A stretch of 24,908 nt of DNA from Gammaproteobacteria bacterium (GTDB lineage: Bacteria; Pseudomonadota; Gammaproteobacteria; HTCC5015). The notes beneath the pieces were generated by a model that was not told where the DNA came from, searched no databases, and saw only the letters and a program-made list of their open reading frames with translations. Numbering within the stretch: the first letter of the stretch is position 1; every line of letters begins with the position of its first letter. The position numbers and the translations under genes are program-made. Below are positions 2,793-23,675 of the stretch, one piece after another. Where the stretch lies: assembly GCA_036381555.1 (NCBI GenBank), contig DASVCP010000330.1, positions 1 to 24,908 on the forward strand, in the 5' to 3' direction.

Positions 2793-2940
2793 TAACCACA
2801 GAGCACACAGAGAGCACTGAGAATAATTAAAAAAGGATTTAAGAACAAATTATATACTCGAATAAGCTTCGAGGATTTTTAATAATGTCTCTTACATACA
2901 GTCTTTTTTGGCTCTGTGTTCTCTATGCGCTCCGTGGTTA
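2793..2940. repeat. Palindromic intergenic cassette, CACGGAG-arm family, copy A (148 bp)
   Basis: Left arm 2793-2821 TAACCACAGAGCACACAGAGAGCACTGAG and right arm 2912-2940 are inverted repeats (24/29). The 90-nt interior is about 24% GC with a central CTCGAA/TTCGAG hairpin. Confidence 0.9.
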
Positions 2941-4068
2941 ATTTGAGATTGTAAGATTTGACTGTTGTTTGTGCAGGAACCAGCGGTTGATGATGAAGTG
3001 CCGGGCGAACCAGCGGCTGCGCATCAGCCTTGCGGCGACGCGTTGTTTGAGAGCGGGGGGCAGCAGGCCTCTTTTCGATTTCCTTGTCTCGGATCGCGGA
3101 CCGTAGCGTTCGATTATCTTCGCTTCGTACGTTTTCAGCGCCTTCAAACTGTAATCGCCCTGTAGCTGCAGAATGGTCTCGGCGGCCAGAATACCGGATT
3201 CGACCGCCGGTCGAATGCCTTCGCCGCTTTGTGGATAGGCCAGCCCCGCGGCATCGCCGATGAACATGACGCGTTCGCCGATCATGCGTCTGGGCGTATG
3301 ACCGTACAGCAGGTAGGCGTGGCCTTTGAACTTCTCGTCGATGTCGGGCGGAACTTTCCCGCGGCTCTTCAGAAACTCAAAGAAAGCATCGAGATGCGCG
3401 GGCAGATGGTGTTTGTCTTCTCTGCCCAGGCCAATGTTCAGGTATTCACCCTTGCGGAAGATCCAGCCGTAGCCCGTCAGATCCTTGCAGAAAAAGAGTT
3501 CCGGAATCTGTGAGTTCACGTTGCACTGCTGCATCTGCCGCGCACTCATTTGAAATTCGATTTCCCGGGCTGCTACTACCGATTCACCGTCCGTCCGTTT
3601 ACTGTCCAACGCTCGAACAACGGGACAGAAATGTCCGCCGGCGCCTATCAGTAACGTTGCATGATATTGACCGTTGATTACCCAGCCATTGCTGCCGCGT
3701 TCGAGGGTGTCCAGGGCTTCGTTCATGTGTAACCGCGCACCGCAACGGCGTAGGAGATAGTTGTCGAACTCGCAACGCCGGATACCGTAGCTGACGATTT
3801 CCGTGTAATCGGTGTCAACTGAAGGCTGCTCCATCATCGAGGTGCGAAAGCCGGTGATGGGTTGCAGCACGTGCCGTTCGGCATAGTTTTCCAGATCGAT
3901 TTGCAGCATGTGCATCACCGCCGGCGTAACCCAGCCGGCGCAGACCTTGTCGCGCGGGAAGTGCGCCTTATCCAGGATGGCAACGTCCAGGCCGCTGTTC
4001 CGCAACCGCCAGGCACACGAAGACCCCGCCGGACCGCCGCCTACAATCAACACGTCATAATGCTGCAT
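2938..4068 (-). CDS. FAD-dependent oxidoreductase, geranylgeranyl reductase family
   Basis: N-terminal Rossmann motif DVLIVGGGPAGS, GGR-family signature FPRDKVCAG, GYGWIF and GDAAG...GEGI motifs. Confidence 0.88.
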   Translation of the reverse strand: MQHYDVLIVGGGPAGSSCAWRLRNSGLDVAILDKAHFPRDKVCAGWVTPAVMHMLQIDLENYAERHVLQPITGFRTSMMEQPSVDTDYTEIVSYGIRRCEFDNYLLRRCGARLHMNEALDTLERGSNGWVINGQYHATLLIGAGGHFCPVVRALDSKRTDGESVVAAREIEFQMSARQMQQCNVNSQIPELFFCKDLTGYGWIFRKGEYLNIGLGREDKHHLPAHLDAFFEFLKSRGKVPPDIDEKFKGHAYLLYGHTPRRMIGERVMFIGDAAGLAYPQSGEGIRPAVESGILAAETILQLQGDYSLKALKTYEAKIIERYGPRSETRKSKRGLLPPALKQRVAARLMRSRWFARHFIINRWFLHKQQSNLTISN

Positions 4069-4089
4069 GGCTGACCTTTTATAAATATT

Positions 4090-4240
4090 TAACCACGGAG
4101 GACACGGAGCGCACAGAGTTTAAAACCGTTGAAAAAATTAATGTCAAAGAGACCTTAAAAAATACGGGAACATGTTGGAAGCATATAGCCCTTCACTTGG
4201 GTTCTTAACTTCTCTGTGATCTCCGTGTTCTCCGTGGTTA
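4090..4240. repeat. Palindromic intergenic cassette, CACGGAG-arm family, copy B (151 bp)
   Basis: Left arm 4090-4118 TAACCACGGAGGACACGGAGCGCACAGAG and right arm 4212-4240 are inverted repeats (26/29), around a 93-nt AT-rich interior. Confidence 0.92.
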
Positions 4241-4251
4241 GATTTGTTTTT

Positions 4252-5556
4252 TCATAAATACAAATGCTCGCGGTTCCAGGGGATATCGTTGTTGCGTTTG
4301 CGGGTGAAGACAACCTGGAACAGTTGCAACTCGCCGATGTGGAACGCGAGGATCGAGCCGGCCAGGTACAGCCGCCAGGCACGCAGGAAGTGCTCGTCGA
4401 ACATGTTTTCCACCTGCTCATGCGCCGTCTCGTAGCGGGACAGCCAGGCACTGAGGGTTTTTTCGTAATGCAGCCGCAGGTTTTCGAGGTCGAGTATTGA
4501 AAATTCGGCCTCTTCAAAGATTTGCATCATCTCGCTGATTGCGGGAGGACGCGCGCCGGGAAAAATGCGGCGTTCAATCCAGGAATTCATGGGTCTGGGC
4601 CGGTTGCGACCGATGGTGTGAATCAGGCCCCGGCCGTTGGGTTTAAGACAGCGGTCTATTAGTCCGCCGAGTTCCGGGTAATTCTCAACGCCGACATGTT
4701 CAAGCATGCCGACCGAGACGAATACATCGTATTGGCCGCTAATCGTGCGATAGTCATCTTCTATGTACTGTACCCGTTCCTGCAAGCCTTCCCGCAGAGC
4801 ACATTCACGGGCGAACTTAACCTGTTCACTTGAAATATTGTAAGCCTTGACAGTGACGCCGTAGTTTTTGGCCATGTAACGGGACAGGCCGCCCCAGCCG
4901 CAGCCGGCTTCCACGACAGTCTGACCGGGCCTGAGTTGTAGCTTGCGGCATATATGTTCCATCTTTGCCAGTTGAGCGTCTTCCAGGTTCATGCCCTCCC
5001 GCGGGAAGTAAGCGCAGGTATACTGCATTTCCTTGTCCAGCCAGAGCCGGTAGAAATCGTTGCCAATGTCGTAATGGTGGTGAATATTTTCCCGGGAGCC
5101 TTTGAGGGTGTTGCGCCTGGCGCGAGGCTTGGACAGTCGGAAACCGTTCCTGCCAGTTTCCCGCCAGGCGCTTCCAGCGCCGTTCTTTTCGTAAATTGCC
5201 AGCAAGAGCGTGAGCAGATCACCTTCAACCACATCGAGCAGCTTGTCGGTATAGCAATCGCCAAAATAACGTTCCGGGTTGCGAAGTACTTTGATCAGCG
5301 CCTGCCGGTTGTTGAAGCGAAGGCAGGCGCGTGGTTTTTGCACACAGGTGTGGATTTTTTCGCCGTTCCACAATTCGCAGGCAATTGGGGGATCGCCGAT
5401 GGCTTTGAGCATGCGTGTAAGCAGCCAGCGATCGATAGCCCCGGCTTTGATAGGGCGTGCTATAGGAGGTATTCTCTTCCCGGCGGACAAGCCTCTTCTT
5501 AAGCGGGCTTCCGAAGAGCTGCTGTACGACAGGCTGTCGGCCCGTGGTTCATGCAT
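4252..5556 (-). CDS. cfa: Cyclopropane-fatty-acyl-phospholipid synthase family SAM-dependent lipid methyltransferase
   Basis: Motifs HHYDIGNDFY, MQYTCAYF, EAGCGWGG, VSVGMLEHVG, IHTIG, IFPG and RAWRLYL. Start 5556 has a GGAG ribosome-binding site; the alternative is 5577. The symbol denotes family only. Confidence 0.88.
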   Translation of the reverse strand: MHEPRADSLSYSSSSEARLRRGLSAGKRIPPIARPIKAGAIDRWLLTRMLKAIGDPPIACELWNGEKIHTCVQKPRACLRFNNRQALIKVLRNPERYFGDCYTDKLLDVVEGDLLTLLLAIYEKNGAGSAWRETGRNGFRLSKPRARRNTLKGSRENIHHHYDIGNDFYRLWLDKEMQYTCAYFPREGMNLEDAQLAKMEHICRKLQLRPGQTVVEAGCGWGGLSRYMAKNYGVTVKAYNISSEQVKFARECALREGLQERVQYIEDDYRTISGQYDVFVSVGMLEHVGVENYPELGGLIDRCLKPNGRGLIHTIGRNRPRPMNSWIERRIFPGARPPAISEMMQIFEEAEFSILDLENLRLHYEKTLSAWLSRYETAHEQVENMFDEHFLRAWRLYLAGSILAFHIGELQLFQVVFTRKRNNDIPWNREHLYL

Positions 5557-5826
5557 GATTAAATTGTCTCCGTCCATGTATTTGCAGTTAGTGCTAATAG
5601 GGGCAGCGACTGGTTTTTCAAGTCAAAACTCGTTACCTTACTTGAACCCAGATTGTCTAGGTTATTGATATTTTAGTGCGAGGGCAAGCGGGTTTTGGCG
5701 TTAGAAATGCTGCGTGGTTTGGATAAACCGGGCCGCTAGACAATAGGACGCTCCTTCACGGGGGCGATCGACATGTAGACAACATTAACTACTGTTTGAG
5801 TTGTAACTTCTTAAAATATTTTCAGC

Positions 5827-6831
5827 ATGAAAAGTGTCGCCGACAAAATGCAAATTGTAGAGGTTGCAGGGGAGGGCGATATCGCCAGGTTAGTGCCCGC
5901 TACTCGTGCGCTACCGGTGCCGGAAACGGGCGAAGTACTTATCAAAGTGGAAGTCGCCGGCGTTAATCGCCCCGATGTTTTTCAGCGTCGCGGGCTTTAT
6001 CCGCCGCCTCGGGGTGCTACGGATATACCCGGACTGGAGGTGGCGGGACGTATCGTTGCGCTGGGTGACTCGGTATCACGATGGAAAGGTGGCGAGCGGG
6101 TTTGCGCGTTGTTGGCCGGCGGAGGGTACGCTGAATATGTTTCCGTACCTGCTGCCTTATGTTTGCCGGTACCGTCAACCTTGACAATGAAGGAAGCCGC
6201 GGCGATTCCGGAAACGTTCTGCACCGTCTGGTCCAATGTGTTCATGCGGGCGAAACTGAGAACCGGCGAGAACTTTCTGGTTCACGGCGGATCCGGCGGC
6301 ATTGGCACAACCGCCATACAACTGACGGCGGCTTTCGGCGCCAGGGTGTTTACATCCGCCGGCAGCGATGAGAAATGCCGCGCTTGTGAGCGGCTGGGGG
6401 CCGAGAAAGCCGTTAATTATCGCGATGAGGATTTTGTGGCCGTTTTTAAAGACGCGACTGATGGCTACGGTATGGACGTGATTCTCGATATGGTGGGGGG
6501 CTCTTATATCGGCCGTAACATCGAGTTGGCGGCTGTTGAGGGTCGTATTATGTTCATTGCGTTTTTGGAAGGCGCCAGGGCGGAAATCAATTTCAGCAGG
6601 CTGATGTTCAAGCGGCTGATGCTGGGCGGGTCGACTTTGAGGTCACGATCACTGGAGTTCAAAAGCAGGCTGATGCAGGATTTGTATCGCCATATCTGGC
6701 CCTTGTTCGAATCCGGCCAAGTAAAGCCGCAGGTGTCCGCTGAGTATCCGTTGCACGAAGCGCAACGGGCTCATGAATTGATGGAGGCGGGCGGACATTT
6801 CGGCAAAATCGTGTTGACCGTCGACGGATAA
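5827..6831 (+). CDS. NAD(P)H:quinone oxidoreductase, PIG3-like medium-chain reductase
   Basis: Motifs AGVNRPD...R.G.YPPP.GA..IPGLE, GGGYAEY, A.IPE.F.TVWSN, LVHGGSGGIGT and HFGKIVL. Confidence 0.92.
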   Translation: MKSVADKMQIVEVAGEGDIARLVPATRALPVPETGEVLIKVEVAGVNRPDVFQRRGLYPPPRGATDIPGLEVAGRIVALGDSVSRWKGGERVCALLAGGGYAEYVSVPAALCLPVPSTLTMKEAAAIPETFCTVWSNVFMRAKLRTGENFLVHGGSGGIGTTAIQLTAAFGARVFTSAGSDEKCRACERLGAEKAVNYRDEDFVAVFKDATDGYGMDVILDMVGGSYIGRNIELAAVEGRIMFIAFLEGARAEINFSRLMFKRLMLGGSTLRSRSLEFKSRLMQDLYRHIWPLFESGQVKPQVSAEYPLHEAQRAHELMEAGGHFGKIVLTVDG

Positions 6832-6877
6832 GGTATGCTTGAGAAGCGGAACCGGAATGGAAAACAGAGGGATTCGA

Positions 6878-8155
6878 ATGAACTTGAGTTTTAAAACAGC
6901 CGGATCACCGGATGCCGGAGGATTGAAGTCGCGCTACTTGCAGGTGCGGGCGGCCACCGAAGCTTTATGCGCCGGATTGCATCCGGAAGACACGGTCGCC
7001 CAGTCCATGGATGACGCCAGTCCGGTAAAATGGCACCTTGCGCACACCGGCTGGTTTTTTGAAGCGCTGGTGCTGGAGAAAGCGTTTGGCGGTTACCGGC
7101 ATTTTCGCGATGAGTACCGGGTGTTGTTCAATTCGTATTACAACAGCGTCGGCGAGCAGTATACGCGCCGCAACCGGGGATTGCTTACACGCCCGACCTT
7201 GCGGGAAGTTTATGAATATCGCCAGCATGTTGATCGGTGTATCTGCGATTTGTTGGACGGTTCGTCGGCGGACGGACTGGAAAGCGTCATCGAAGTGGGA
7301 TTGCACCACGAGCAGCAACACCAGGAACTGATCCTGACGGATATCAAGCATCTCTTTTCTTATAATCCCGCCTGTCCCGTGTTCCGGGAACAGGATCGGC
7401 AACCGCCGCAGTGTGAGTCGACTGAACCGCGCTGGCTGCCGTTTCCCGAGGGGTTGTATACGATCGGTCATGCCGGCGGGGATTTCGCTTTCGACAACGA
7501 AACGCCGGCGCACCGCGCCTGGCTGGCGTCATTCGAGTTGGCGTCCCGGCCGGTTACCAACAGGGAATACCTGGCGTTCATGACCGACGGCGGTTATCGG
7601 CGGCCGGAGTTGTGGCTGTCCGACGGTTGGGCCGTACTCCGGCAACAAAACTGGAACGCCCCGCTATACTGGCGGCAATGCAACGACACATGGGTTACGC
7701 TGACACTATCGGGGTTGCAGCCGGTGCGCGAGGATGAGCCAGTTGTGCATGTCAGTTACTACGAGGCGGATGCTTATGCCCGCTGGGCCGGCGCCCGCCT
7801 GCCGACGGAACAGGAATGGGAAGTCGCGGCGAAGAGCGCGCCGATCGAGGGTAACTTCGTCGAAAGCGGTTGGTTACACCCTGTGCCCGTAGCGCGGGAC
7901 GGCGACAACGTGCAACAGATATTCGGCGATGTTTGGGAATGGACGCAAAGCCCGTATGGTTCCTATCCCGGTTACCGCCCCTTGAACGGCGAACTGGCCG
8001 AATACAACGGCAAATTCATGTGCAACCAGATGGTATTGCGTGGCGGTTCGTGTGCGACACCGCTATCACATATTCGTCCCACCTATCGTAATTTTTTCCC
8101 GCCTCAGGCCCGCTGGCAGTTCAGTGGACTTCGATTGGCGCGTGATGCGCGATAA
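6878..8155 (+). CDS. egtB: Ergothioneine biosynthesis sulfoxide synthase EgtB (DinB-like plus FGE-sulfatase domains)
   Basis: Motifs SPVKWHLAHT.WFFE, iron ligands HHEQQHQE, FAFDNE.P.H, RLPTEQEWE, EYNGKFM and YRNFF. ATG at 6878 has a GAGGGA ribosome-binding site. Confidence 0.9.
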   Translation: MNLSFKTAGSPDAGGLKSRYLQVRAATEALCAGLHPEDTVAQSMDDASPVKWHLAHTGWFFEALVLEKAFGGYRHFRDEYRVLFNSYYNSVGEQYTRRNRGLLTRPTLREVYEYRQHVDRCICDLLDGSSADGLESVIEVGLHHEQQHQELILTDIKHLFSYNPACPVFREQDRQPPQCESTEPRWLPFPEGLYTIGHAGGDFAFDNETPAHRAWLASFELASRPVTNREYLAFMTDGGYRRPELWLSDGWAVLRQQNWNAPLYWRQCNDTWVTLTLSGLQPVREDEPVVHVSYYEADAYARWAGARLPTEQEWEVAAKSAPIEGNFVESGWLHPVPVARDGDNVQQIFGDVWEWTQSPYGSYPGYRPLNGELAEYNGKFMCNQMVLRGGSCATPLSHIRPTYRNFFPPQARWQFSGLRLARDAR

Positions 8156-8162
8156 CCCGGGC

Positions 8163-9152
8163 ATGGTGTTCGACCCTTCGCCATACTACTCCGGATTGGA
8201 ATTGATTGAAGGTAACGAAGCCTTCAATCGGTGGCGGAGTGGGTTGCCGGATCTGATCGCGCGGGAACTTGCGCCCGACAGGCATGGAAACTTTCCGGAA
8301 TGGCAGGACGTCTTGCGGGATTTGCCGCTATTGCCAACCACATGTATCGATTGTAACGCGGCGGCTGTGAAGGCCGGGGCGGCGTACCCTCCGGATCCGG
8401 CGGAAAATGCGAAGCTGGAACAGCGGTTGCGCCGGTTTATGCCATGGCGAAAAGGGCCGTTCGACATGCACGGGGTTTTTATCGACAGCGAATGGCGCTC
8501 CGATTGGAAGTGGGACCGCCTCAAGGACCATATTCAGCCGCTGCGGGACCGCCTGGTGCTGGATGTGGGCTGCGGCAACGGTTACCACTGCTGGCGGATG
8601 GCTGGCGCCGGGGCCCGGGCTGTGCTGGGCATCGATCCGACGGCGCTATATGTTATGCAATATCTGGCGGTCCAGCACTTTATACGTTCTTCCGGGGTGT
8701 TTGTTTTGCCGCTTGCCCTGGAAAGCCTGCCGCCCAACCTGCGCGCCTTTGATACGGTATTTTCCATGGGTGTCCTGTACCACCGCCGTTCACCTCTCGA
8801 CCATCTGCTGGATTTGCGCGGCTGCCTGGCGCCGGGCGGGGAGCTGGTGTTGGAGACTCTGGTCGTCGACGGGGGAGCAGGCGTCACCCTGATGCCCCGG
8901 AGCCGCTACGCCCGCATGCGGAATGTCTGGTTCATTCCATCATGTCCCACTCTGGAAATCTGGTTGCAACGTTGTGGTTTCACCGACATCCGTCTGGTCG
9001 ACGTGGCCGCCACCTCAATCATGGAACAGCGGGTCACTTCCTGGTCGGGCACCGCCTCGTTGCGGGACTTTCTCGACCCCCTTGATTCCAGCCGTACTGT
9101 GGAGGGTTATCCTGCCCCCAGACGGGCCATTTTCCTGGCGATCAGTTCTTAA
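8163..9152 (+). CDS. cmoB: tRNA 5-methoxyuridine(34)/uridine-5-oxyacetic acid(34) synthase CmoB
   Basis: Motifs PWRKGPF, IDSEWRSDWKWDR, VLDVGCGNGYH, FDTVFSMGVLYHRRSP, RYARMRNVWF and EGYPAP. The start is 8163 or 8145. Confidence 0.93.
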   Translation: MVFDPSPYYSGLELIEGNEAFNRWRSGLPDLIARELAPDRHGNFPEWQDVLRDLPLLPTTCIDCNAAAVKAGAAYPPDPAENAKLEQRLRRFMPWRKGPFDMHGVFIDSEWRSDWKWDRLKDHIQPLRDRLVLDVGCGNGYHCWRMAGAGARAVLGIDPTALYVMQYLAVQHFIRSSGVFVLPLALESLPPNLRAFDTVFSMGVLYHRRSPLDHLLDLRGCLAPGGELVLETLVVDGGAGVTLMPRSRYARMRNVWFIPSCPTLEIWLQRCGFTDIRLVDVAATSIMEQRVTSWSGTASLRDFLDPLDSSRTVEGYPAPRRAIFLAISS

Positions 9153-9363
9153 GCACGAACGGCTGATATTCAACCGGTTGATATTCCTAACAGTTTGTTT
9201 TTTCAAGATTTTTTTGGAAATTTCGAACTTCGGTCGCCGGGTCTTCTCATACCAATGGCTGATACCTATCTCGGGATAGTGCGGGTAGTATTCTTTCTCG
9301 GCCTCCTGTTAATGCAAATGGGGGCGGGTTCTGGGGGTAGCTAGGATGAGATATGGTGAGCTT

Positions 9364-9780
9364 ATGGCAAGCAAACAATCCATACAAAAGCAGGAGCAAA
9401 TATTAATTCAGGGATACGATGCCGTGTTGAAGCAGGTGGCCGAGACGACCACGGCGGTGAGCGAAGCCGGGTATTCCATTCGCATGGTTTTTAAGCCCAG
9501 AGTGCTGCGCGAAGCCACGGAAAACCTGGACGCCTGTGCGGAGCGTCTTCGCAAACTGGACCAGCGGTTGAGCAGCATCACCCGCCTGCAGGGAGATATT
9601 GACGGCAAATTGAGAGCAATAAGAACTTTCTCGACCTTGTTCGACAAGGGTAACGTTGCCTGCATATCCCTGTGTCAGGGTTACCGGGCCATTCATCAAC
9701 TCAAGAATCGTCAGAATCTTTACGTTATCCTTGGAATCGTCGTGTTGGTGATTGCAGGCACGATTTTCTCCCTGCTTTAA
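9364..9780 (+). CDS. Hypothetical protein, helical/coiled-coil with a C-terminal transmembrane segment
   Basis: Clean 138-144 aa ORF filling the intergenic gap, with a hydrophobic tail LYVILGIVVLVIAGTIFSLL. The alternative start is 9346. I recognise no family. Confidence 0.65.
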   Translation: MASKQSIQKQEQILIQGYDAVLKQVAETTTAVSEAGYSIRMVFKPRVLREATENLDACAERLRKLDQRLSSITRLQGDIDGKLRAIRTFSTLFDKGNVACISLCQGYRAIHQLKNRQNLYVILGIVVLVIAGTIFSLL

Positions 9781-9786
9781 TACAAC

Positions 9787-9952
9787 TAGAACCTATCTCA
9801 AAATGTCGCGAGCGCCGTGTGCAGCGCACGCGGTAGACCTCGGTGGAGGCAAAAATGTCCGGAAAAGCGGAGTTCACACGCTAGTAAATGAGCATTCTGA
9901 GGACATTTTTAACGATGTATCAGCAAGCGCAGCAATTTTGAGATAGGTTCTA
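9787..9952. mobile_element. MITE-like non-autonomous element with TA ends
   Basis: Perfect 18-bp terminal inverted repeat TAGAACCTATCTCAAAAT / ATTTTGAGATAGGTTCTA (16 bp plus flanking TA), and an internal 10-bp inverted repeat AAAAATGTCC/GGACATTTTT. There is no transposase ORF. Confidence 0.8.
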
Positions 9953-9957
9953 ACAAA

Positions 9958-10062
9958 AGTATGAAGTATATGAGTATTGAAGTATGAGTATGTGAGTTCA
10001 AAAGTAGCGATTGATCTTTCCCGGCTTGAATAACTCTCATACTCAAATACTTTTATACTTCA
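9958..10062. repeat. Palindromic element with AGTAT-based 6-8 nt subrepeat arms
   Basis: Left AGTATGAAGTATATGAGTATTGAAGTATGAGTATGTGAG; right CTCATACTCAAATACTTTTATACTTCA. Positions 9962-9988 and 10036-10062 pair at 23/27. Confidence 0.75.
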
Positions 10063-10063
10063 A

Positions 10064-10312
10064 TTACCGTTCCGTTTCGTTTTCCTCCGGCGTCAGCGCC
10101 TGGATCGACAGTGCGTGCAGGGCGCCGCTGGCAATGGCGTCATTCAGGGCGGCATAAATATTCTGGTGGCGTTTCACTTTGGACATGCCGGCAAACAGTT
10201 TACTGATAACCGTCACCCGGTACTTGTAACCGTCGCCGTTGACCTCGATCCAGGCGCCGGGAAACCGGGTTGACAGCCGGTTCTGGATATCTTCGTTGCT
10301 GATCGCTTCCAT
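10064..10312 (-). CDS. bolA: BolA/IbaG family protein
   Basis: 82 aa with GDGYKY..TVIS..F.G.SKVKRHQ.IY and LHALSI.A.TPEE. The symbol denotes family only. Confidence 0.92.
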   Translation of the reverse strand: MEAISNEDIQNRLSTRFPGAWIEVNGDGYKYRVTVISKLFAGMSKVKRHQNIYAALNDAIASGALHALSIQALTPEENETER

Positions 10313-10320
10313 AAAATTCC

Positions 10321-11208
10321 TTACGTTGGTGCTTTTACTGAGGGAATATCCGCTGAAGTCAGTTCCAGGCTTTCCTCAATACCGATAAACGTGGCGATTA
10401 ACGGCATGATCCGTTGAAAGAGCCCATTCAGTTCGTCGCTGTAGAGCAGGCCGCGGTCTATACCTTCTGTCCAACCATAAATCGAATTTTTCAGATCTTC
10501 GGCGGAATGTACGTGTCGACCGATATCGTGAAGAATTTTTTTATATTCGGAGTGAGTCGGGAAAACATTCAACTGCTGGAAAAGCTCGTGCAAACCGGCC
10601 ATTAAGGGTTCGGCTTCCGGTCCGAGTTGAAAGTCGACCGGCTTGAAAGGCGCATCCCGTAGCGAACCGGCTTTCACCCAGACTTTAAAGCTGTGTTTTT
10701 GCAGGGAGTGATACAGCGGTTCCTCCGAAATCAAAAACACCAGCAGATTTTTGCGATTGGCGTAAAACGCGGTGTCGCGGTAATGCCATTCGTGTTCGAT
10801 CAGAAACCGGTAGATCCGTATATGATCCTTAAAGTCGGCGGCCTGCAGTTGGTCGAGAATCAGGATGGTTTTATCGGCTTCACTGAAGGCACAGGCGTCG
10901 TTCATAATCCGGTCAAACAGGCCGGCGGGAGGTTCTTCCTTGCCGTTTTGCTCCTCGCCACCTGGGTTGACCGGTTTTGGGGCCGGCAGCGGTTCTTCCT
11001 GAGTGAAATCATGGTAAAGGATATGCACAGCGTCCATTGAATTGGCCAGGGCGTTGGCGAACGCGGTTTTACGGCGCCCGGGTTCGCCCTCCACGTTCAG
11101 GCAACGCAAAGCGGGGCCGGGAATGCTTTGCAGGCAGCGAACGATATAGTCGTAGCGCTCATTCGACTCGAAACCGTGTTCCGCCATTTTTTGCTGCAAA
11201 GTGATCAT
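10321..11208 (-). CDS. Degenerate AAA+ (MoxR/CoxD-like) protein
   Basis: P-loop-like LNVEGEPGRRKTAFANALA and Walker-B-like ILILDQ. The order of motifs matches CoxD-type MoxR ATPases. Confidence 0.65.
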   Translation of the reverse strand: MITLQQKMAEHGFESNERYDYIVRCLQSIPGPALRCLNVEGEPGRRKTAFANALANSMDAVHILYHDFTQEEPLPAPKPVNPGGEEQNGKEEPPAGLFDRIMNDACAFSEADKTILILDQLQAADFKDHIRIYRFLIEHEWHYRDTAFYANRKNLLVFLISEEPLYHSLQKHSFKVWVKAGSLRDAPFKPVDFQLGPEAEPLMAGLHELFQQLNVFPTHSEYKKILHDIGRHVHSAEDLKNSIYGWTEGIDRGLLYSDELNGLFQRIMPLIATFIGIEESLELTSADIPSVKAPT

Positions 11209-14024: not shown

Positions 14025-14067
14025 GTGCTTTCATCCACGGTTAAGAGCCAACTCAAATCCTGATAAT

Positions 14068-14333
14068 CTCACGCAAAGGCGCGAAGGCGCAAAGGAAATA
14101 AAAAATGAGTTGCTATTCTATTCATGACTGCCGGAAATGAAGTGAAGAGCGCTCTGTGTGAAGGAAGGATACTTTAGGAATGATTAGATATGTATTCGAC
14201 AGGTAAGAAGATTTTGCTTCCTGGTTTTACCTTTCAATGCTCTGCCAGCTTTTAACCCTTCGCGACTTAGCGCCAACGTTCAGGGACGAACTAATGCCGC
14301 GTAGGCAGGAGCCGAGAGCGGTATTTGCGTGAG
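14068..14333. repeat. Palindromic intergenic cassette, CGCAAAG-arm variant, copy C (right arm interrupted)
   Basis: Left arm 14068-14095 is CTCACGCAAAGGCGCGAAGGCGCAAAGG. The right arm is split into 14257-14274 (15/18) and 14324-14333 (10/10) by a 49-bp insert. Confidence 0.82.
14275..14323. repeat. 49-bp insertion with a GGA-loop hairpin inside the right arm of copy C
   Basis: Removing 14275-14323 restores a contiguous 28-bp arm. The insert has ATGCCGC...GCGGTA(T) and GGC-AGGA-GCC stems. Confidence 0.65.
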
Positions 14334-15132: not shown

Positions 15133-15167
15133 AACGTCAGTAACGATGAAAAACCGGTGTGTTTTTC

Positions 15168-15342
15168 CTCGCGCTGAGACGCAGAGAAAGGAAGCTTTGT
15201 ACGTGATGGGCTAAATAAAGCCTGACCTTTGCTGACCGCGTTCCGGTCCGGGGCTGTTTTGCCTCTTGGAAACCGACCTGTCAGAGGCCTCTTTATTTTT
15301 CTAACTCTCATGGATGCCGGCGTCTCCGCGTCTCAGCGCGAG
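15168..15342. repeat. Palindromic intergenic cassette, CGCWGAG-arm variant, copy D (175 bp)
   Basis: Left arm 15168-15187 CTCGCGCTGAGACGCAGAGA and right arm 15323-15342 are inverted repeats (19/20). Confidence 0.82.
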
Positions 15343-15353
15343 ATAATGCTTTT

Positions 15354-15551
15354 TTAATAATGAGGCGGTTTTTCGTGTTTGGGGTCAATGTTCGAGTCAT
15401 ACATTTCCCGCAGATGCTGCTTGAACAACGCCAGTTGATTCTCCAGCGCGGTGATCTGCCGCTGTTGCTCAACAACCGCATTGTTCAACGTTTCGTGCGC
15501 CGCCTCCAGGTGGGCGAGCTTGATTTCCACTTCGGTCAGCCGGTCGTCCAT
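15354..15551 (-). CDS. slyX: SlyX family protein
   Basis: 65 aa coiled coil with RLTEVEIKLAH.E...E.LN..VVEQQ.QI and the C-terminal EKPPHY. Confidence 0.93.
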   Translation of the reverse strand: MDDRLTEVEIKLAHLEAAHETLNNAVVEQQRQITALENQLALFKQHLREMYDSNIDPKHEKPPHY

Positions 15552-16045
15552 CAGCGAAATGCAGGCAGGAAGCGATAGTGTATGTCACGCATGATGGCGG
15601 CCACCCATGGCCACAGGATCATGCTGATGAAGGACGGCATAAAGTAAATAAACAGGCTGGCCGGCGCACGGTTGGTGATACCGTAGATCCATAAAAACAG
15701 CAGTTGTTTTGCCAGCAGCACAAACATAACGATGATGCTTTGCTGGATGGGCGGATAAATCCGGAAGCGCTGATGGTTTTTCAGGATGATGAAAGTCAGC
15801 AAGGTCAACCCCAGGGCGTGCTGCCCCAGCAGGGTTCCCATGGCCACATCCAGCAGCAGTCCGAGTGCCAAGCCGGTGCCGAGGCCGGCATGGAACGGCA
15901 GCGCCATGCACCAGTATATGAGTATCAGCGACACCCAGTCCGGTCTGAACGGCTCCGCCCAGTCAGGTAGCGGGAAAATCATCAGCATCAGGCCGACCAG
16001 CAAAGAGAAGTGGATTACCCAAAAAATACGCAGCCGGTTATTCAT
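15551..16045 (-). CDS. mreD: Rod shape-determining protein MreD
   Basis: Motifs PLPDWAEPFRPDW..L..IYW, GLLLDVAMGTLLG.HAL and WPW. It follows mreC. The start is 16045; the ORF-track extension is spurious. Confidence 0.93.
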   Translation of the reverse strand: MNNRLRIFWVIHFSLLVGLMLMIFPLPDWAEPFRPDWVSLILIYWCMALPFHAGLGTGLALGLLLDVAMGTLLGQHALGLTLLTFIILKNHQRFRIYPPIQQSIIVMFVLLAKQLLFLWIYGITNRAPASLFIYFMPSFISMILWPWVAAIMRDIHYRFLPAFR

Positions 16046-16880
16046 GGTATTCCGGCTGTTGGTTGGGCCAGACCAGCAGTACTTCGCGGCTGCGATCCAG
16101 TTCGGCGGTGGGCGTGGCGGTAACTTTGGCGAAGGGTAATCCGGGCTGAATGACGACTTCGGCGATGACGGCAACCGGATAGTTGGGCGGAAAGCGCCCG
16201 CCCAGCCCCGACGAGATCAGCAGGTCGCCCGGCTTCAGGTCGGTATTGTTGGGAATATGCAGCAGGTCCAATTCGTTGGGGTTACCCTTTCCCTGGGAGA
16301 TGGTGCGCACACCGTTGCGATTATTTTGTACGGGCAGGGCGTGACTTGGGTCGGAAATCAACAGTACGTCGGCGGTGTATTGATAGACTTCAACGACTTG
16401 CCCCAAAACGCCTTTCGCATCAATCACGGGTTGCCCGGGGTATACATGGTGAACCTTGCCTTTATTGATCACGATCTGTTGCTTGTAGTAATCCTGGTCG
16501 ACCCGCACGACTTCCGCAATCAGAATATCTTCGCCAACCTGGGATGAGGCCCGTAACAGTTCCCGCAGCCGCGAATTTTCCTGTTGCAGGCTCAGCAACT
16601 TTAGTTGTTGCGCCTTCAGTTGCAGGTTTTCATCGTACAGGCGGGCGTTCTCCTCCATAATCGATTGATGAGCGGCCATGGAATTGCCGGACCATTCCAG
16701 GAACCGCGAGGGCAGGGAGACGATGTACTGCATGGGATAAACAAGATAGGAGCCAAGCGTGCTGCGAAAGCCTTTCAGCGCATCGTTGCGGTGATCGATG
16801 GTCATCAGCACAAGGCACAATACGCTGATGACAACCAGGCGAAATGTCAGGCTGAGGTTTTGTTGGAATAGCGACTGCAT
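16038..16880 (-). CDS. mreC: Rod shape-determining protein MreC
   Basis: N-terminal transmembrane segment, coiled coil ENSRLRELL, GVLGQV, and GDLLISSGLGGRFPPNYPVA. Confidence 0.95.
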   Translation of the reverse strand: MQSLFQQNLSLTFRLVVISVLCLVLMTIDHRNDALKGFRSTLGSYLVYPMQYIVSLPSRFLEWSGNSMAAHQSIMEENARLYDENLQLKAQQLKLLSLQQENSRLRELLRASSQVGEDILIAEVVRVDQDYYKQQIVINKGKVHHVYPGQPVIDAKGVLGQVVEVYQYTADVLLISDPSHALPVQNNRNGVRTISQGKGNPNELDLLHIPNNTDLKPGDLLISSGLGGRFPPNYPVAVIAEVVIQPGLPFAKVTATPTAELDRSREVLLVWPNQQPEYHE

Positions 16881-16907
16881 CGCTCCTCCGGCCCGCCCAG
16901 GCGGGGA

Positions 16908-18463
<1,556 letters not shown>

Positions 18464-18464
<1 letters not shown>

Positions 18465-19918
18465 TGCACGATAAAACATTGACCGAATTGGCCGCCGGGC
18501 TTCATGCCGGCGAATTCTCCAGTGTCGAGTTGACCCGGCATTTCCTGGATCGGATCAGGCGGTATAACCCCGATCTCAACAGTTTCATTACCGTCACCGA
18601 AGAGCGGGCCCTGGCGGCGGCAAAACAGGCCGATGAACGTCTGGCGCGCGGTGAAGCGGGACCCCTGGAAGGGCTGCCGGTCGCGCACAAAGATATTTTC
18701 TGTACGCAAGGCGTAAAGACCACTTGCGGCTCGCGAATGCTGGATAACTTCATTGCTCCTTACGAATCGACCGTTACCGCCAGAATGGCGGCGGCCGGCA
18801 TGATCACGCTTGGCAAAACCAATATGGACGAGTTCGCCATGGGCTCGTCGAACGAAACCAGCTATTACGGTCCGGTCAAAAACCCGTGGGACACCACACG
18901 CGTGCCCGGCGGCTCGTCCGGCGGTTCGGCCGCCGCGATGGCGGCGCGACTGGCGCCGGCCGCGACCGGCACGGATACCGGCGGTTCGATCCGACAACCC
19001 GCGGCGTTATGCAACGTGACCGGGTTGAAACCGACTTATGGCCGCGTATCCCGTTACGGCATGATCGCTTTCGCATCCAGTCTTGACCAGGCCGGCCCGA
19101 TGGCGGCCACCGCCGAAGACTGCGCCCTGCTGCTGAACGTTATGGCCGGCTTCGACGAGCGCGATTCCACTTCGGTGGACCGGCCGGTACCTGATTACAC
19201 GGCCGCGCTAAATAAGGACATTAAAGGGCTGAAGATCGGGTTGCCCAAACCGTTTTTTGACTCGGGTCTGGATTCGAAGGTCGCAAAAATCATTGGCGCC
19301 GTGATAGAGGAATACACGGGGGCCGGCGCGGAATTTATCGAAATCGATTTGCCGCATATGCACCTGTCCGTGCCGGTTTACTACGTGGTCGCGCCCGCCG
19401 AATGCTCGTCCAACCTGTCCCGTTTCGACGGCGTGCGTTACGGCTACCGGGCCGGGAATCCGAAAGACCTGGAAGACCTGTTCAAGCGCTCTCGCGGCGA
19501 AGGCTTCGGCGCCGAAGTGCAGCGGCGTATCATGATAGGTACTTACGCTTTATCCGCGGGCTACTACGACGCTTATTATAAGAAAGCCCAACAGGTCCGG
19601 CGGCTGATCGCCGACGACTTTAAGCGGGCTTTTGAACAGGTGGACGTAATCATGGGGCCGACCTCGCCGTCCACCGCGTTTAAAATCGGCGAAAAGGCCG
19701 ACGACCCGGTGGCGATGTATTTGTCAGATATCTACACCATCGCGGTGAACCTGGCGGGCCTGCCCGGCATCTCCATACCCGCCGGGATGGCCGACGGCCT
19801 GCCGGTCGGCGTGCAGATCATCGGCAACTACTTCGACGAAGCCCGTTTGCTCAACGTCGCGCACCAGTACCAGCAACGCACCGACTGGCACCGGCAGATG
19901 CCTGAAAGTTTTAAATAA
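18464..19918 (+). CDS. gatA: Asp-tRNA(Asn)/Glu-tRNA(Gln) amidotransferase subunit A
   Basis: Amidase signature [31 protein letters not shown] and [11 protein letters not shown]. It has a TGATG overlap with gatC. Confidence 0.98.
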
Positions 19919-19925
19919 AACCATT

Positions 19926-20079
19926 TAACCACGGAGGACACGGAGATCACTGAGAAAGAAAAGTAAAAGATCTTCAGGAAATGCTTAATGCCCGTGATTA
20001 TTTGCCGTTCTCGGATGAGCTTGATCTTTTGTTTAACGTAAATGTTTTTACTCTGTGAGCTCCGTGTCCTCCGTGGTTA
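19926..20079. repeat. Palindromic intergenic cassette, CACGGAG-arm family, copy E (154 bp)
   Basis: Left arm 19926-19954 TAACCACGGAGGACACGGAGATCACTGAG and right arm 20051-20079 are inverted repeats (27/29), around a 96-nt interior. Confidence 0.92.
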
Positions 20080-20103
20080 GAAAGCTTTTTTAAAGAGGTA
20101 AAA

Positions 20104-21540
20104 ATGGAATGGGAAACGGTTATCGGGCTTGAGGTTCATGCCCAGCTGGCCACCAAGAGCAAGATTTTCTCGGGGGCGCCGACGGCTTACGGCGCCGCGC
20201 CGAATACGCAGGCCTGCGCGGTCGACCTGGGGTTTCCCGGTGTGCTGCCCGTGCTGAACAAAGAAGCCGTGCGGATGGCGGCCAAGTTCGGGTTGGCGAT
20301 CGATGCGACGGTGGCCGAGACGTCCATTTTCGCCCGCAAAAATTACTTTTATCCCGACCTGCCCAAGGGTTACCAGATCTCACAGTACGAGCAGCCGGTG
20401 GTGGCCAACGGCCATCTCGACATCGAACTGGAAGACGGCGCCGTGAAGCGCATCAGGATTACCCGCGCGCACCTGGAAGAGGATGCCGGCAAATCGCTGC
20501 ACGAGGATTTCCACGGCATGAGCGGCATCGACTTGAACCGCGCCGGCACGCCTTTGCTGGAAATCGTCTCCGAACCCGATTTGCGCTCGGCCAAGGAAGC
20601 GGTGGCCTATCTGAAGAAACTGCATTCACTGGTGCGATACCTGGAGATTTGCGACGGTAACATGCAGGAAGGATCATTTCGCTGCGACGCCAACGTCTCG
20701 GTGCGGCCGAAAGGACAGGCGGAATTCGGTACGCGCGCCGAAATCAAGAACCTCAACTCGTTCCGGTTTGTCGAGAAAGCCATCAATTTCGAAGTCGAGC
20801 GGCAGATCGACCTGCTGGAGGGTGGCGGCAGGATCGTCCAGGAGACGCGGCTTTACGACGCCGACAAGGACGAAACCCGCTCCATGCGCACCAAGGAGGA
20901 AGCCAACGATTACCGTTATTTCCCCGATCCGGACTTGCTGCCGCTCAAACTGGACCGCGCGTTTATCGAGGACGTGCGTAAAACCCTGCCCGAACTGCCG
21001 GATGCGAAAAGGCAGCGTTTCCAGACCGAATACGGGTTGTCATCCTACGATGCCGGCGTACTGACCGCCAGTCGTGAAATGGCGGATTACTTTGAAATCG
21101 CAGTCAAAGCCGGTCAGGCGGAAGCGAAGCTGGTCGCCAACTGGGTGATCGGCGAACTGTCCGGAGCGCTCAACAAGGCAGGCCTCGAAATTGCGGCCAG
21201 CCCGATCGGTCCGGCACAACTGGCGCAGTTGCTTGACCGCATTGCGGACAACACCATTTCCGGCAAGATCGCCAAGGACGTCTTCGAGGCCATATGGCAG
21301 GGCGAGGGAAGCGCGGACGCGATTATCGACCGCAAAGGCCTGAAACAGATTACCGACAGCAGCGCAATCGAGCCGATTATCGACGAAATCATCGCCGCCA
21401 ATCCCGGCCAGGTCGAACAGTACCGGGCCGGAAAAGACAAGGTGTTCGGCTTTTTTGTTGGCCAGGTGATGAAAGCCACGCAGGGGAAGGCCAATCCGGG
21501 CCAGGTGAACGAACTGCTCAAACGGAAACTGCAAAAATGA
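20104..21540 (+). CDS. gatB: Asp-tRNA(Asn)/Glu-tRNA(Gln) amidotransferase subunit B
   Basis: Motifs [52 protein letters not shown] and [10 protein letters not shown]. Confidence 0.98.
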
Positions 21541-21638
21541 GGCGTTATACGCCTCGGTACCCTCGGGCGGGGCTTGTTCCCATCCGGGATGGCTTTGTGA
21601 TACCCTAGCCAGCCACCGAATTTAGCGGGGATACAAAA

Positions 21639-22067
21639 ATGCGCAAGGCTTCGGCCGCAGACCGGATAGAAGACGAATCCGATATCGATATGACACCCAT
21701 GCTCGACGTGGTGTTTATCATGTTGATTTTCTTCATTGTGACGGCCTCGTTTGTCAAAGAATTCGGCCTGGACATGAACAGCCCCGATGATAACAATGAG
21801 CCGCCTCCGACCCAGCAGGACAACACTATCCTGATACGCATCGAAGAAAGCGGCCGTATCTGGGTGGAAGACAGCCCGACCGACGTCGGCGGTATCCAGC
21901 CCAATGTCAAGCGCCTGCATGCCCAGAATCCGAAAGCCAAAGTGGTTATTCAACCGGATGCCAAGGCCAAGACTGACCTGATGATACAGGTGCTGGATCA
22001 ATCGCGCGCCGCGGGCGTGGATGCTTCGATTGCCCAGATCGTCCAGGAACTGGAGAATACGTTATAA
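21639..22067 (+). CDS. exbD: ExbD/TolR family biopolymer transport protein
   Basis: Motif IDMTPMLDVVFIMLIFFIVTASF, plus VVIQPD...T...IQVLD in the periplasmic domain. Confidence 0.92.
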   Translation: MRKASAADRIEDESDIDMTPMLDVVFIMLIFFIVTASFVKEFGLDMNSPDDNNEPPPTQQDNTILIRIEESGRIWVEDSPTDVGGIQPNVKRLHAQNPKAKVVIQPDAKAKTDLMIQVLDQSRAAGVDASIAQIVQELENTL

Positions 22068-22094
22068 CTTGGCTTTGTTTCGCCTCAGGTTCCA

Positions 22095-22127
22095 CAAAGA
22101 AGCCGGCCTCTGGGCCGGCTTTTTGTT
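22095..22127. terminator. Bidirectional intrinsic terminator between the convergent exbD and JAB genes
   Basis: AAGCCGGCC-TCTG-GGCCGGCTT stem-loop with a T tract on the right and an A-rich tract on the left. Confidence 0.85.
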
Positions 22128-22132
22128 GACCG

Positions 22133-22546
22133 CTAAACGGTAAGTGTGATCTCCCGCATCCCTTCGGCGGTCAGCCGAAATGCGCGCATTTCCAATACTC
22201 CCTTGGTGTTCAGGGAAATGATCAACTGGTAAGTATCCGGATAGCCGATGTTTTCCAGGTCACGCATCGATGGTTCGGCGGGACTGGCCGGGTGCGAATG
22301 GTAGATGGCGAACAGGTTTTCATGTTTGGTCCGCATGGTTTTCAGAGCGTGAATCTGGTCCTGCGGGTCCATCTCGAAAGCGTCTTCGGGACTGGCGGCG
22401 ACGTTTTTGACCGGGTACACCGTGCTCGGCCGGTCGCCGATCGCACCCACCAGCCCGCAAATCTCCCGTTCCGGCGACTGCTGCGCCAGCGCCAACAAGT
22501 GGGTCGCCAGAGGACGGGTGATTTTGATTTCCGATCTTGCCTGCAT
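22133..22546 (-). CDS. JAB/MPN (Mov34) metallopeptidase, CysO-cysteine peptidase-like
   Basis: N-terminal REICGLV glutamate and JAMM motif YHSHP.S...PS..D. The start is 22546 or 22573. Confidence 0.9.
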   Translation of the reverse strand: MQARSEIKITRPLATHLLALAQQSPEREICGLVGAIGDRPSTVYPVKNVAASPEDAFEMDPQDQIHALKTMRTKHENLFAIYHSHPASPAEPSMRDLENIGYPDTYQLIISLNTKGVLEMRAFRLTAEGMREITLTV

Positions 22547-22606
22547 AACAAACCCGGTTGAAAGGACGTGCATTAAACCAAAAAAACAAAAAAATCAAAA
22601 CCTAAT

Positions 22607-22759
22607 TAACCACGGAGGGCACGGAGAGCACAGAGGATAAAAACATTTAAAACTAAAAACAGTATATGCAAAGAGCTAAAAATTAATGAAAGTGGGAAAA
22701 AATTCCTAAAAGATCTTCAATTCATTTTTTCTCCGTGTTCTCCGTGCCCTCTGTGGTTA
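22607..22759. repeat. Palindromic cassette, CACGGAG-arm family, copy F (153 bp), overlapping the moeB 3' end
   Basis: Left arm 22607-22635 TAACCACGGAGGGCACGGAGAGCACAGAG and right arm 22731-22759 are inverted repeats (26/29), around a 95-nt A-rich interior. Confidence 0.92.
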
Positions 22760-23507
22760 AATTTTTTAAATCCCCGCAAACGGCACAGCCCGGGTCTTTG
22801 TTGAGTTTCAGGTTGCGCCATTGCAGGGTCGCGGCGTCCAGCAATAACAGACGGCTGTCGAGCGGTTCGCCGATACCGGTAATCAGTTTGATCGCTTCCA
22901 GCGCCTGCATGCTGCCGATGATCCCCACCAGCGGACCGATGACGCCCACATCGCTGCAACGTTCGCCGACGTCGGTCGCGTCAGGATAAAGGCAGGCGTA
23001 GCACGGGCTGCGGGGCGTGTTGTTGAAGACGGCGATCTGGCCTTCCAGACGGATGGCCGCGCCCGAGATCAACGGCTTGCCTTTATCGACGCAGGCCTGG
23101 TTGACAGCGTAACGCGTGGCGAAGTTGTCCGTGCAATCCAGGACGATATCCACGCCGTCGATTGCCGTGACGATATGGTCAACCGTGATCTTTTTATCGA
23201 GGCTGTGAATTAGCAGGGTCCGGTTGATTTCCTGCAAGCGCCCGGCGGCAGCCGCGGTTTTTTTATGACCGAGATCGTGATCGTCGTACAGTATTTGCCG
23301 ATGCAGGTTGGAGAGGGCGACCCGGTCGAAGTCGGCCAGCGTCAGCTCGCCGATGCCCGCCGCCGCCAGGTAGATGGCCGCCGGTGAACCCAACCCGCCG
23401 AGCCCGACGATCATCACATGCGCATCGCGCAACGCTTCCTGGCCTTCGTAACCGAAGTCCGGCAGCACCATCTGGCGCGTATAACGATTAAGCGTTTCGT
23501 CGTCCAC
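22722..23507 (-). CDS. moeB: MoeB/ThiF family adenylyltransferase (E1-like)
   Basis: Motifs RYTRQ, GLGGLGS, DFD.V..SNLHRQ, DCTDNF, zinc motifs CYAC and CAVC, and the catalytic Cys in ERCSDVG. GTG start. Confidence 0.92.
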   Translation of the reverse strand: MDDETLNRYTRQMVLPDFGYEGQEALRDAHVMIVGLGGLGSPAAIYLAAAGIGELTLADFDRVALSNLHRQILYDDHDLGHKKTAAAAGRLQEINRTLLIHSLDKKITVDHIVTAIDGVDIVLDCTDNFATRYAVNQACVDKGKPLISGAAIRLEGQIAVFNNTPRSPCYACLYPDATDVGERCSDVGVIGPLVGIIGSMQALEAIKLITGIGEPLDSRLLLLDAATLQWRNLKLNKDPGCAVCGDLKNLTTEGTENTEKK

Positions 23508-23525
23508 TTGTTTCTAACTGATATT

Positions 23526-23675
23526 TAGCCACGGAACCCACGGAAAAACACGGAAGATAGGAAGGTTTAATAAAACGTTTAGCTTTATCTTTTACTTTAG
23601 CAAATCGAGCATGATAATGAATAATCATGTTTTACTATAAACAATTTCCATGTTTTTCCGTGGGTTCCGTGGCTA
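23526..23675. repeat. Palindromic intergenic cassette, CACGGAA-arm variant, copy G (150 bp)
   Basis: Left arm 23526-23555 TAGCCACGGAACCCACGGAAAAACACGGAA and right arm 23646-23675 are inverted repeats (29/30), around a 90-nt AT-rich interior. Confidence 0.92.

Follow-up and report, generated by a model that had tools for sequence, protein, structure and literature searches.

Palindromic cassettes at gene junctions of a soil gammaproteobacterium belong, as copies without a gene, to the repeat family found around GxxExxY genes

The 24,908-nt stretch of DNA analysed here (the window) is contig DASVCP010000330.1 (C330) of a gammaproteobacterial metagenome-assembled genome (MAG) from soil (GCA_036381555.1; 3.58 Mb in 563 contigs, 55% G+C, 84% complete), and the question that it raises is what the five palindromes of about 150 bp are that lie between its ordinary housekeeping genes. 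An earlier note, made from the sequence alone, had taken them for empty members of a repeat-flanked cassette system served in trans and had suggested that arms of this type flank genes of the GxxExxY (TIGR04256) family in many bacteria. The five palindromes belong, as copies without a gene, to a widespread, patchily distributed family of repeats that is found around GxxExxY genes. In its full-length form a member of this family would consist of inverted arrays of two to five C-R-C-R-R-A-K heptamers with a period of 8-9 nt, placed around a gene for a GxxExxY protein of about 125 residues with a PD-(D/E)XK nuclease fold. Taken as a whole, the cassettes are best explained as gene-less members of a system that consists of a nuclease and its cognate repeat and that functionally resembles Ssn/NTS or the pairing of REP-associated tyrosine transposases (RAYTs) with REPINs, the hairpin-forming doublets of repetitive extragenic palindromic (REP) sequences; the probability of this explanation is put at roughly 0.6.

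The five palindromes that the earlier note had reported are all present (Table 1), and its description of them holds for every copy, both in that each sits at a gene junction and in the design of the arms, which are inverted, 29-30 nt long and composed of a TAAC or TAGC end followed by three CACRGAR heptamers with a 9-nt period. The units are of the CACGGAG/CACAGAG type in four of the copies and of the CACGGAA type in cassette G, whose pattern of units and spacers is that of the arms around a GxxExxY gene on another contig of the same genome (C95, see below). The two-unit pattern CACRGARNNCACRGAR is matched 18 times in the window where 0.13 matches are expected, which is an excess of about 140-fold that is reached in none of 100 shuffles. 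All five copies share the grammar of the wider family, namely inverted arms with at least two tandem C-R-C-R-R-A-K units, a period of 8-9 nt and an (A/G)CC outer end. Each of them folds into one long hairpin with a stem of 30-45 bp, a loop of about 90-110 nt and outer flanks that are rich in A and T (-51 to -65 kcal/mol, z-scores -6.9 to -11.7). No Rfam family was matched in the window, and the statement that it holds no mobilising open reading frame (ORF) stands for GxxExxY and Y1-transposase genes, neither of which was matched on the contig and which were the only types searched for.

The cassettes of the window are a small sample of what the host genome contains. Its arm motif is matched 454 times genome-wide against about 0.5 expected, and with a looser motif the matches merge into 314 arms that form 127 convergent pairs, most of which span 110-250 nt; the genome thus holds at least 127 CACGGAG/CACGGAA pairs plus those of further dialects, and hundreds of copies lie outside the window. 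The consensus of the arm is TTTAAC-CACGGAGnnCACGGAGnnCACAGAG, extended on the outside by an A-rich stretch and on the inside, after the three units, by an A-rich flank that often starts with TTAAAA, and the pattern of the flanks is one of A-tract, stem and T-tract. Other dialects follow the same design, with 160 matches for CGCRRAG at an 8-nt period (14 for the control), 137 for CRCRGAT, 50 for CACGGAA and 41 for CAGAAT, and all dialects together amount to about 520 arms. The CRCRGAT dialect is represented by 95 arms with the consensus CTATC-CGCAGATnnnCGCAGATnnnCACAGAT; no intact GxxExxY gene that matches it is present in the assembled part of the genome, and a partial gene at the end of contig C77 has CGCCGAT-like units close by. 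The interiors of the cassettes have a mean G+C content of 32% compared with 55% for the genome, are with few exceptions unlike one another (126 interiors) and are structured barely above shuffled sequences (mean z-score -1). Identity between arms is 0.79 within a copy versus 0.73 between copies, so that covariation within copies is weak genome-wide. Of 120 elements not one falls within a long ORF, and the upstream stop codon is at a median distance of 22 nt. Among the 106 junctions with an ORF called on both sides 59 are co-directional, 36 convergent and 11 divergent, compared with background shares of 65%, 17.5% and 17.6%, respectively (p = 3e-5), which makes convergent junctions twofold enriched.

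What connects the arms to a protein is the position of the GxxExxY genes. TIGR04256 is matched at four places in the host genome. The gene on contig C95 (P0001, 121 residues) is located exactly between CACGGAA-type arms and that on contig C197 (P0002, 127 residues) between CACGGAG-type arms that are tandemly repeated on both sides; both proteins match PF13366 and TIGR04256 at about 1e-40, and the arms of both genes are nearly identical to the consensus of the gene-less copies. A third, degraded gene on contig C428 lies between CGCAGAG/CGCGGAG arms, and the fourth match runs off the end of its contig. Inverted arms of tandem units (CACGGAG, CACAGAG, CGCAGAG, CGCCAAG or AATCCTG) flank every one of the eight GxxExxY genes found in 40 relatives, and in a phylum-wide sample of 301 genomes, which was assembled around the protein rather than the arms, 27 of the 28 genes for which both flanks are available have such arms, with units that all fit C-R-C-R-R-A-K. 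The link which the earlier note had suggested is therefore verified in this genome, in its relatives and across the phylum, and coding copies between arms do exist here and in related genomes. The arms also extend far beyond the phylum. The exact 28-nt arm pattern is found in more than 117 stretches from MAGs labelled as Acidobacteria, Verrucomicrobia, Planctomycetes, Beta- and Gammaproteobacteria, Spirochaetes, Bacteroidota, Chloroflexi, Actinobacteria, Chlamydiae and others, where it forms short hairpins or encloses a GxxExxY gene, and a 26-nt version that lacks the leading AA occurs on at least 120 viral contigs.

The neighbourhood of the C197 gene shows a more elaborate arrangement (C197:2190-3350), in which three left arms, each with the same inner flank of about 35 nt, and several right arms flank the GAG-type gene and are interleaved with a second repeated module, GGAGCAAATTTCTG..., which abuts arms elsewhere in the genome too.

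Arms and gene also occur in the same genomes. Among 41 relatives the gene is present in six of the seven genomes with at least ten arm matches versus two of the 34 others (p = 4e-5), and the two arm-poor relatives which have the gene use another dialect. In the phylum sample it is present in 30 of 36 genomes with at least two triple-unit arms versus 22 of 265 without arms (odds ratio 55, p = 2e-21), figures which, like those for the relatives, ignore kinship and to which a single family (f63) contributes the dominant share in the phylum sample. The numbers of the two partners can be very unequal, as in the relative G010 where one gene is found alongside 362 arm matches.

The protein itself has the features expected of a nuclease. 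In an alignment of 40 homologues the residues G26, E31, Y34, E35, D71, E81 and K83 are invariant, and these make up a complete PD-(D/E)XK site (E31, D71, E81 and K83) together with the motif that gives the family its name. The AlphaFold model (pLDDT 95) finds only weak matches in the PDB by Foldseek (TM-scores 0.3-0.5), all of them of PD-(D/E)XK type and including Cas4 SSO0001, the archaeal tRNA-splicing endonuclease and lambda exonuclease; no solved structure related by sequence was found. The family is very large, with at least 8,000 candidates for PF13366/TIGR04256 in the homologue search, and a 2012 census of PD-(D/E)XK proteins gives the function of PF13366 as 'Unknown' and notes multiple transfers. 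Homologues of P0002 with 60-67% identity carry the labels Betaproteobacteria, Gammaproteobacteria, Hydrogenedentes and Armatimonadota, and in the protein tree one acidobacterial and one planctomycete protein nest among the proteobacterial ones.

Protein and arms appear to have diverged together. Unit types cluster on a tree of 40 proteins, with 22 changes versus 28 for shuffled labels, a value reached by one of 200 shuffles, and one well-supported clade contains all genes with units that end in GAT or GAA as well as the sole gene with AATCCTG arms. The closely related proteins L167 and L177 have arms with the same spacers in which all six units differ, being CGCAGAG in the one and CACAGAG in the other. 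The need to maintain a stem asks only for pairwise compensation, and a change in every unit would point either to one reader that recognises the units or to their homogenisation by slippage or conversion.

By analogy with Ssn and its NTS repeats and with RAYTs and REPs, it is proposed that the nuclease reads heptamer arrays in a sequence-specific manner and cuts at or near them, and that its activity may seed, homogenise or maintain arms in trans by way of break repair or recombination instead of cut-and-paste. The elements would be tolerated as long hairpins on host transcripts that leave genes unbroken. Recognition of its heptamer arrays by the nuclease, in the way that Ssn and RAYT proteins recognise their repeats, is considered somewhat better than an even bet; that this recognition also drives the spread of the arms is doubtful. 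That the nuclease cuts the arms and that the elements are mobile are both inferences. A more far-reaching proposal, which is tentative and on balance unlikely, is that the GxxExxY gene and its arms constitute a self-propagating, foldback-shaped element of an undescribed kind, driven by a PD-(D/E)XK nuclease and making no target duplications, which would seed hundreds of gene-less hairpins at operon junctions, cross between phyla, perhaps carried by phages, and have a parallel in a system built around the IVP genes that are described below. The foldback (FB) transposons of eukaryotes have long inverted arms that consist of short tandem subrepeats in variable number and enclose a centre that is variable or coding; the resemblance to them is one of form alone, as they are eukaryotic, far larger and encode unrelated proteins.

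Among published systems the nearest in function is that of Ssn, a small nuclease of the GIY-YIG type that cuts, as single-stranded DNA, the hairpin repeats (NTS/SRM) on either side of its gene; these repeats occur in hundreds of gene-less copies, with an ssn gene present in 81% of the repeat-rich genomes (Chenal et al. 2025, PMC11893778). Here too a single-domain nuclease gene of about 100-130 residues is flanked on both sides by a dispersed hairpin-forming repeat that has hundreds of gene-less copies, the gene is present in a comparable share of the arm-bearing genomes (83%) and variants of the repeat go with variants of the protein. This is a likeness of organisation and not of membership. 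The enclosed proteins match only PF13366 and would adopt the PD-(D/E)XK fold, whereas Ssn is a GIY-YIG protein (cd10448), and the NTS is a compact hairpin of 20-50 nt, unlike the two distant arms of two to five tandem heptamers and the AT-rich interior of about 100 nt that are seen here. Specificity for single-stranded DNA, which is established for Ssn, could be extended to GxxExxY proteins by analogy alone.

The cassettes also recall REPs and REPINs in that the repeats which bracket one or a few resident enzyme genes are dispersed as gene-less inverted doublets too, that these are extragenic and close to 3' ends and lack a target duplication, and that the locus of the gene is fixed within a genus (G004 and G010). 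They differ in that the enzyme is not of the Y1 HUH type and that there is neither a GTAG head nor an imperfect palindrome of 20-40 nt; the earlier note had set them apart from GTAG REPs, and rightly so, since the arm is a non-palindromic tandem array that starts with TAAC or TAGC. With miniature inverted-repeat transposable elements (MITEs) and with palindromic elements of the Correia or ERIC type they share that they are short, high in copy number, able to form hairpins and co-transcribed with neighbouring genes, and here the differences are the lack of a target duplication, of shared interiors and of a parent element with a DDE transposase. Ordinary MITEs or REPINs that depend on a DDE or RAYT (Y1 HUH) transposase encoded elsewhere in the genome would likewise be small, numerous and intergenic and end in inverted repeats, and three genes of the Y1_Tnp type (PF01797) are indeed present. 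None of the three has CACGGAG-type arms on its contig, however, and one of them is bordered by a palindrome of another, REP-like kind. Target-site duplications are missing at any offset, the interiors are not shared, with few matches between the 126 interiors as the earlier note had led one to expect, and GxxExxY genes are the only ones that are found consistently between these arms. The RAYT and MITE readings were rejected on account of the Y1_Tnp genes without arms and the lack of target duplication, and their probability is very low; no match to an already described MITE or REP family that has a transposase was seen. The Y1_Tnp gene with its own palindromes (C145:365-1100, in which the RAYT-like gene is followed by several GGTGGGC(R)(S)TGCCCACC palindromes) looks like a separate, ordinary REP/RAYT system.

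Comparison of orthologous junctions, as the earlier note had suggested, is most informative for gatA and gatB, between which cassette E is located and of which the latter encodes a GatB that resembles those of Pseudomonadota. In most relatives the two genes are separated by 0-45 nt without a cassette, whereas the closest relative (G005, about 80% identity) has a shorter CACAGAG cassette with an unrelated interior, G029 has a CGC-type cassette and the two members of one genus, G004 and G010, have a full arm-flanked GxxExxY gene. Metagenome contigs add lineages with CACGGAG, CGCCAAG, CGCAGAG or CAAGTGA cassettes amid empty ones. The variation at this junction is one of presence and absence, the site having been occupied repeatedly and independently. 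Since the genomes compared are all distant from one another, no event could be dated and no boundary fixed; the flanks of the congeners G010 and G004 (157 kb and 200 kb) are 65-85% identical, which likewise left the boundaries of the element unfixed. The genome of G004 also contains a gene-less cassette (L133:2590-2760) whose interior copies about 70 nt from the 3' end and trailer of the GxxExxY gene next to it, so that internal loss from gene-bearing copies is the origin of at least some of the gene-less ones. The adjoining gene has lost its left arm. When four soil metagenome runs were compared with the window, contigs were found to break at the arms and the joints reported came from other cassettes; no empty gatA-gatB allele of this species was found in metagenomes, and a looser anchor in gatB gave nothing closer than 82% identity. 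The comparison of junctions thus provides empty sites in most relatives and no occupied and empty pair among near-identical sequences.

Several results weigh against an enzyme that acts on its own repeats. No pair of near-identical occupied and empty sites was found (the nearest relatives being about 80% identical), no movement of elements was observed and there is no excess of direct repeats that would indicate a target-site duplication in 118 elements (k = 3-8, offsets 0-25, a 2-nt TA still being possible). The interiors in the host genome hold no GxxExxY coding remnants above noise and, being unrelated to one another as well, cannot be explained by simple copying of whole elements. Well-assembled genomes exist that have many arms and no detectable gene, namely G029 (a single contig with about 100 CGC-type matches), G012, G084 and G193. 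Physical linkage alone predicts that arm types cluster with genes, which makes the co-divergence suggestive and no proof. The searched literature contains passing mentions of GxxExxY in three papers and neither a function nor biochemical data for them. Finally, genes of the IVP family, which have no nuclease fold, share the arm architecture including gene-less copies, so that the design as such needs no nuclease inside.

The last of these points rests on a parallel family of cassettes. Contig C341 of the host genome encodes P0003, a four-helix-bundle protein of the 23S rRNA intervening sequence (IVS) protein family (PF05635), between CAGAAT-unit arms, and gene-less CAGAAT arms are present as well. 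About 24 of 29 sampled genes for IVS proteins (TIGR02436, IVP) have inverted tandem-unit arms, with units that differ from those of GxxExxY genes (GTAGGCA, GTGAYTG, GGCATTAG, AGTGAGT and others), a difference that strengthens the notion that each gene family has its own repeat grammar. The cassettes resemble the 23S rRNA IVS (IVP/S23p, PF05635) in that a small ORF or an empty loop lies between inverted repeats which place a long stem in a host transcript, in their sporadic distribution and in the tandem-unit arms around the C341 gene; they differ in that all five copies of the window lie between protein genes and not in rRNA helices (helix 25/45) and in that they belong to another family with other units. 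A role at the level of RNA is conceivable along these lines, with the duplex of the arms being processed in the transcript, for example by RNase III, and the RNA of the cassette released or silenced so that insertion into an operon would be harmless, while the DNA spreads by an unrelated route. The stems of 30-45 bp, the location within co-directional operons, the shared architecture of IVP genes as ORFs of known 23S rRNA intervening sequences and the tandem units, which would allow arms to pair in several registers, all agree with this. So does the orientation of gene-bearing cassettes, which is the same as that of both neighbours in 14 cases and opposite in one (p = 0.001) and which fits expression by read-through from host operons. 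However, a pure constraint on the stem predicts free drift with compensation, not one heptamer family that crosses phyla or a concerted change of six units, and a role in RNA is an unlikely sole explanation that could coexist with a nuclease acting on its cognate repeats. A further full GxxExxY cassette is found in G021 (L144, contig C263) between two co-directional, unannotated genes that were taken by eye as nuoE and nuoF; if that identity is right, it would be another insertion within an essential operon.

The arms have been seen in print before and were then given a different meaning. In Geobacter metallireducens 21 pairs of sites on opposite strands and at variable distance were listed as 'Class 2 predicted global regulator (IHF/HU) binding sites', IHF being the integration host factor; each site is a tandem of three TCTCCGTS[Y] units, a sequence whose reverse complement is CACGGAGA, and the pairs are located at gene junctions, such as that between the genes for the alpha and beta subunits of pyruvate dehydrogenase E1 and including some within operons, and are absent from G. 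sulfurreducens (Aklujkar et al. 2009, PMC2700814). These are the same sequence object as the arms of the window, with the difference that they were read as sites for host regulators and were not connected with a nuclease gene, other phyla or mobility; in the searched literature no printed link between the heptamer repeat and GxxExxY was found. The reading of Aklujkar et al. is in favour of structures that serve the host, be it as sites for proteins of the IHF/HU type or as terminating or mRNA-stabilising hairpins under selection, in which GxxExxY genes would merely lodge. The preference for 3' ends of genes and for convergent junctions, the very stable hairpins with their flanks of A-tract, stem and T-tract and the persistence of arms in genomes without the gene point the same way. 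On the other hand, the elements are sporadic and lacking in most sister genera, whose orthologous junctions work without them, and an identical 28-nt arm in unrelated phyla is not explained by any single host factor. Loops of about 90-110 nt are far from the design of a terminator, and a scan for consensus terminators found a single site inside an arm, a small hairpin at 23658. Moreover, the type of arm follows the enclosed family, with CRCRRAK units around GxxExxY genes and other units around IVP genes. A primary role in serving the host is accordingly thought improbable.

It remains to be asked in what sense the elements are cassettes. The wording of the earlier note, empty members of a repeat-flanked cassette system, can be kept insofar as the five palindromes are gene-less members of the arm family; as a claim about cassettes in the sense of integrons it is without support, the sole tandem run of arms, that of C197, flanking one gene and an integrase not having been searched for. 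An exchange of cassettes would make the arms the sites of a trans-acting, integron-like site-specific recombinase and GxxExxY its commonest cargo, in keeping with the variable interiors, the few longer arm pairs that enclose other small ORFs and the different dialects at one junction across lineages. Yet the elements are dispersed singly and not arrayed beside an integrase, GxxExxY is what nearly all of the examined copies with a gene carry, the dialect of the arms tracks the clade of the cargo protein and no recombinase partner was found, though none was systematically sought. Exchange of this kind is highly improbable.

A nuclease with its cognate repeats thus stays the preferred explanation. 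To what was known of such repeats the window adds gene-less copies of several dialects beside matching genes in one genome, a single junction that is found empty, gene-less and gene-bearing, an intermediate that bears a gene remnant and the Geobacter precedent from 2009. The arm motif provides PF13366/TIGR04256 proteins with a testable substrate, since every member is accompanied by a candidate recognition site of its own, and the natural variants of specificity (units of the GAG, GAA, GAT and CGC type) present the same situation that made Ssn nucleases useful tools. It would also explain a class of repeats which fills about 1% of the genome and has been annotated elsewhere as binding sites of regulators, and which probably contributes to the breaks in the assembly of this genome. 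The question that it raises is how hairpins with conserved arms and unrelated interiors originate.

Table 1. Coordinates, arm types and surroundings of the palindromic cassettes in the window
Feature	Span	Arms	Unit type	Junction or remark
Cassette A	2793..2940	2793-2823 and 2910-2940	CACAGAG/CACGGAG	DctM / FAD-oxidoreductase, convergent
Cassette B	4090..4240	4090-4118 and 4212-4240	CACGGAG	cfa-type methyltransferase / FAD-oxidoreductase, both genes on the minus strand (co-directional)
Cassette E	19926..20079	19926-19954 and 20051-20079	CACGGAG	gatA>gatB, co-directional
Cassette F	22607..22759	22607-22635 and 22731-22759	CACGGAG	ThiF/MoeB>JAB, co-directional
Cassette G	23526..23675	23526-23555 and 23646-23675 (97% complementary)	CACGGAA	PrmC>ThiF/MoeB, co-directional
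CGC-type cassette	14066..14333		CGCRRAG dialect, 8-nt period	right arm split by an insert of about 50 nt
Second CGC-type cassette	15167..15343		CGCRRAG/CGCTGAG dialect	

Cassette F reaches into one of its neighbours. The ThiF/MoeB frame (22722-23507, minus strand) crosses the right arm and has its stop inside the cassette at 22722, so that the arm encodes the final dozen or so residues of the protein, which is 261 residues long and has a Pfam domain that ends at residue 242.

Repeats of different kinds are also found within or next to one another. Arrays of CRTAGGG and TCACGAAT lie within CACGGAG arms, and in one case a CGCGAAG pair directly follows a lone CACGGAG arm (L015:5045-5393, L022:6207-6330 and L014:3500-3705), from which it appears that elements of different dialects insert into one another. 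Two cassette interiors of G010 (contig C4, 145862-146091 and 155356-155889; L218) share TTCCGGATAAGCGC...GCGCTTTCCGGAATGACC and a GC-rich, REP-like unit, and the interiors may thus act as landing sites for other repeats. In G012, where no GxxExxY gene is detectable, the unit CACGGAAGT is repeated perfectly in tandem about 15 times at position 17055-17187 of contig C55, so that the arm unit can expand in the manner of a minisatellite. The window itself contains one more palindrome, composed of GAAGTAT/AGTATGA units (9958-10062); GAAGTAT repeated within 3 nt has a single match genome-wide, and in that form it does not constitute an abundant family.

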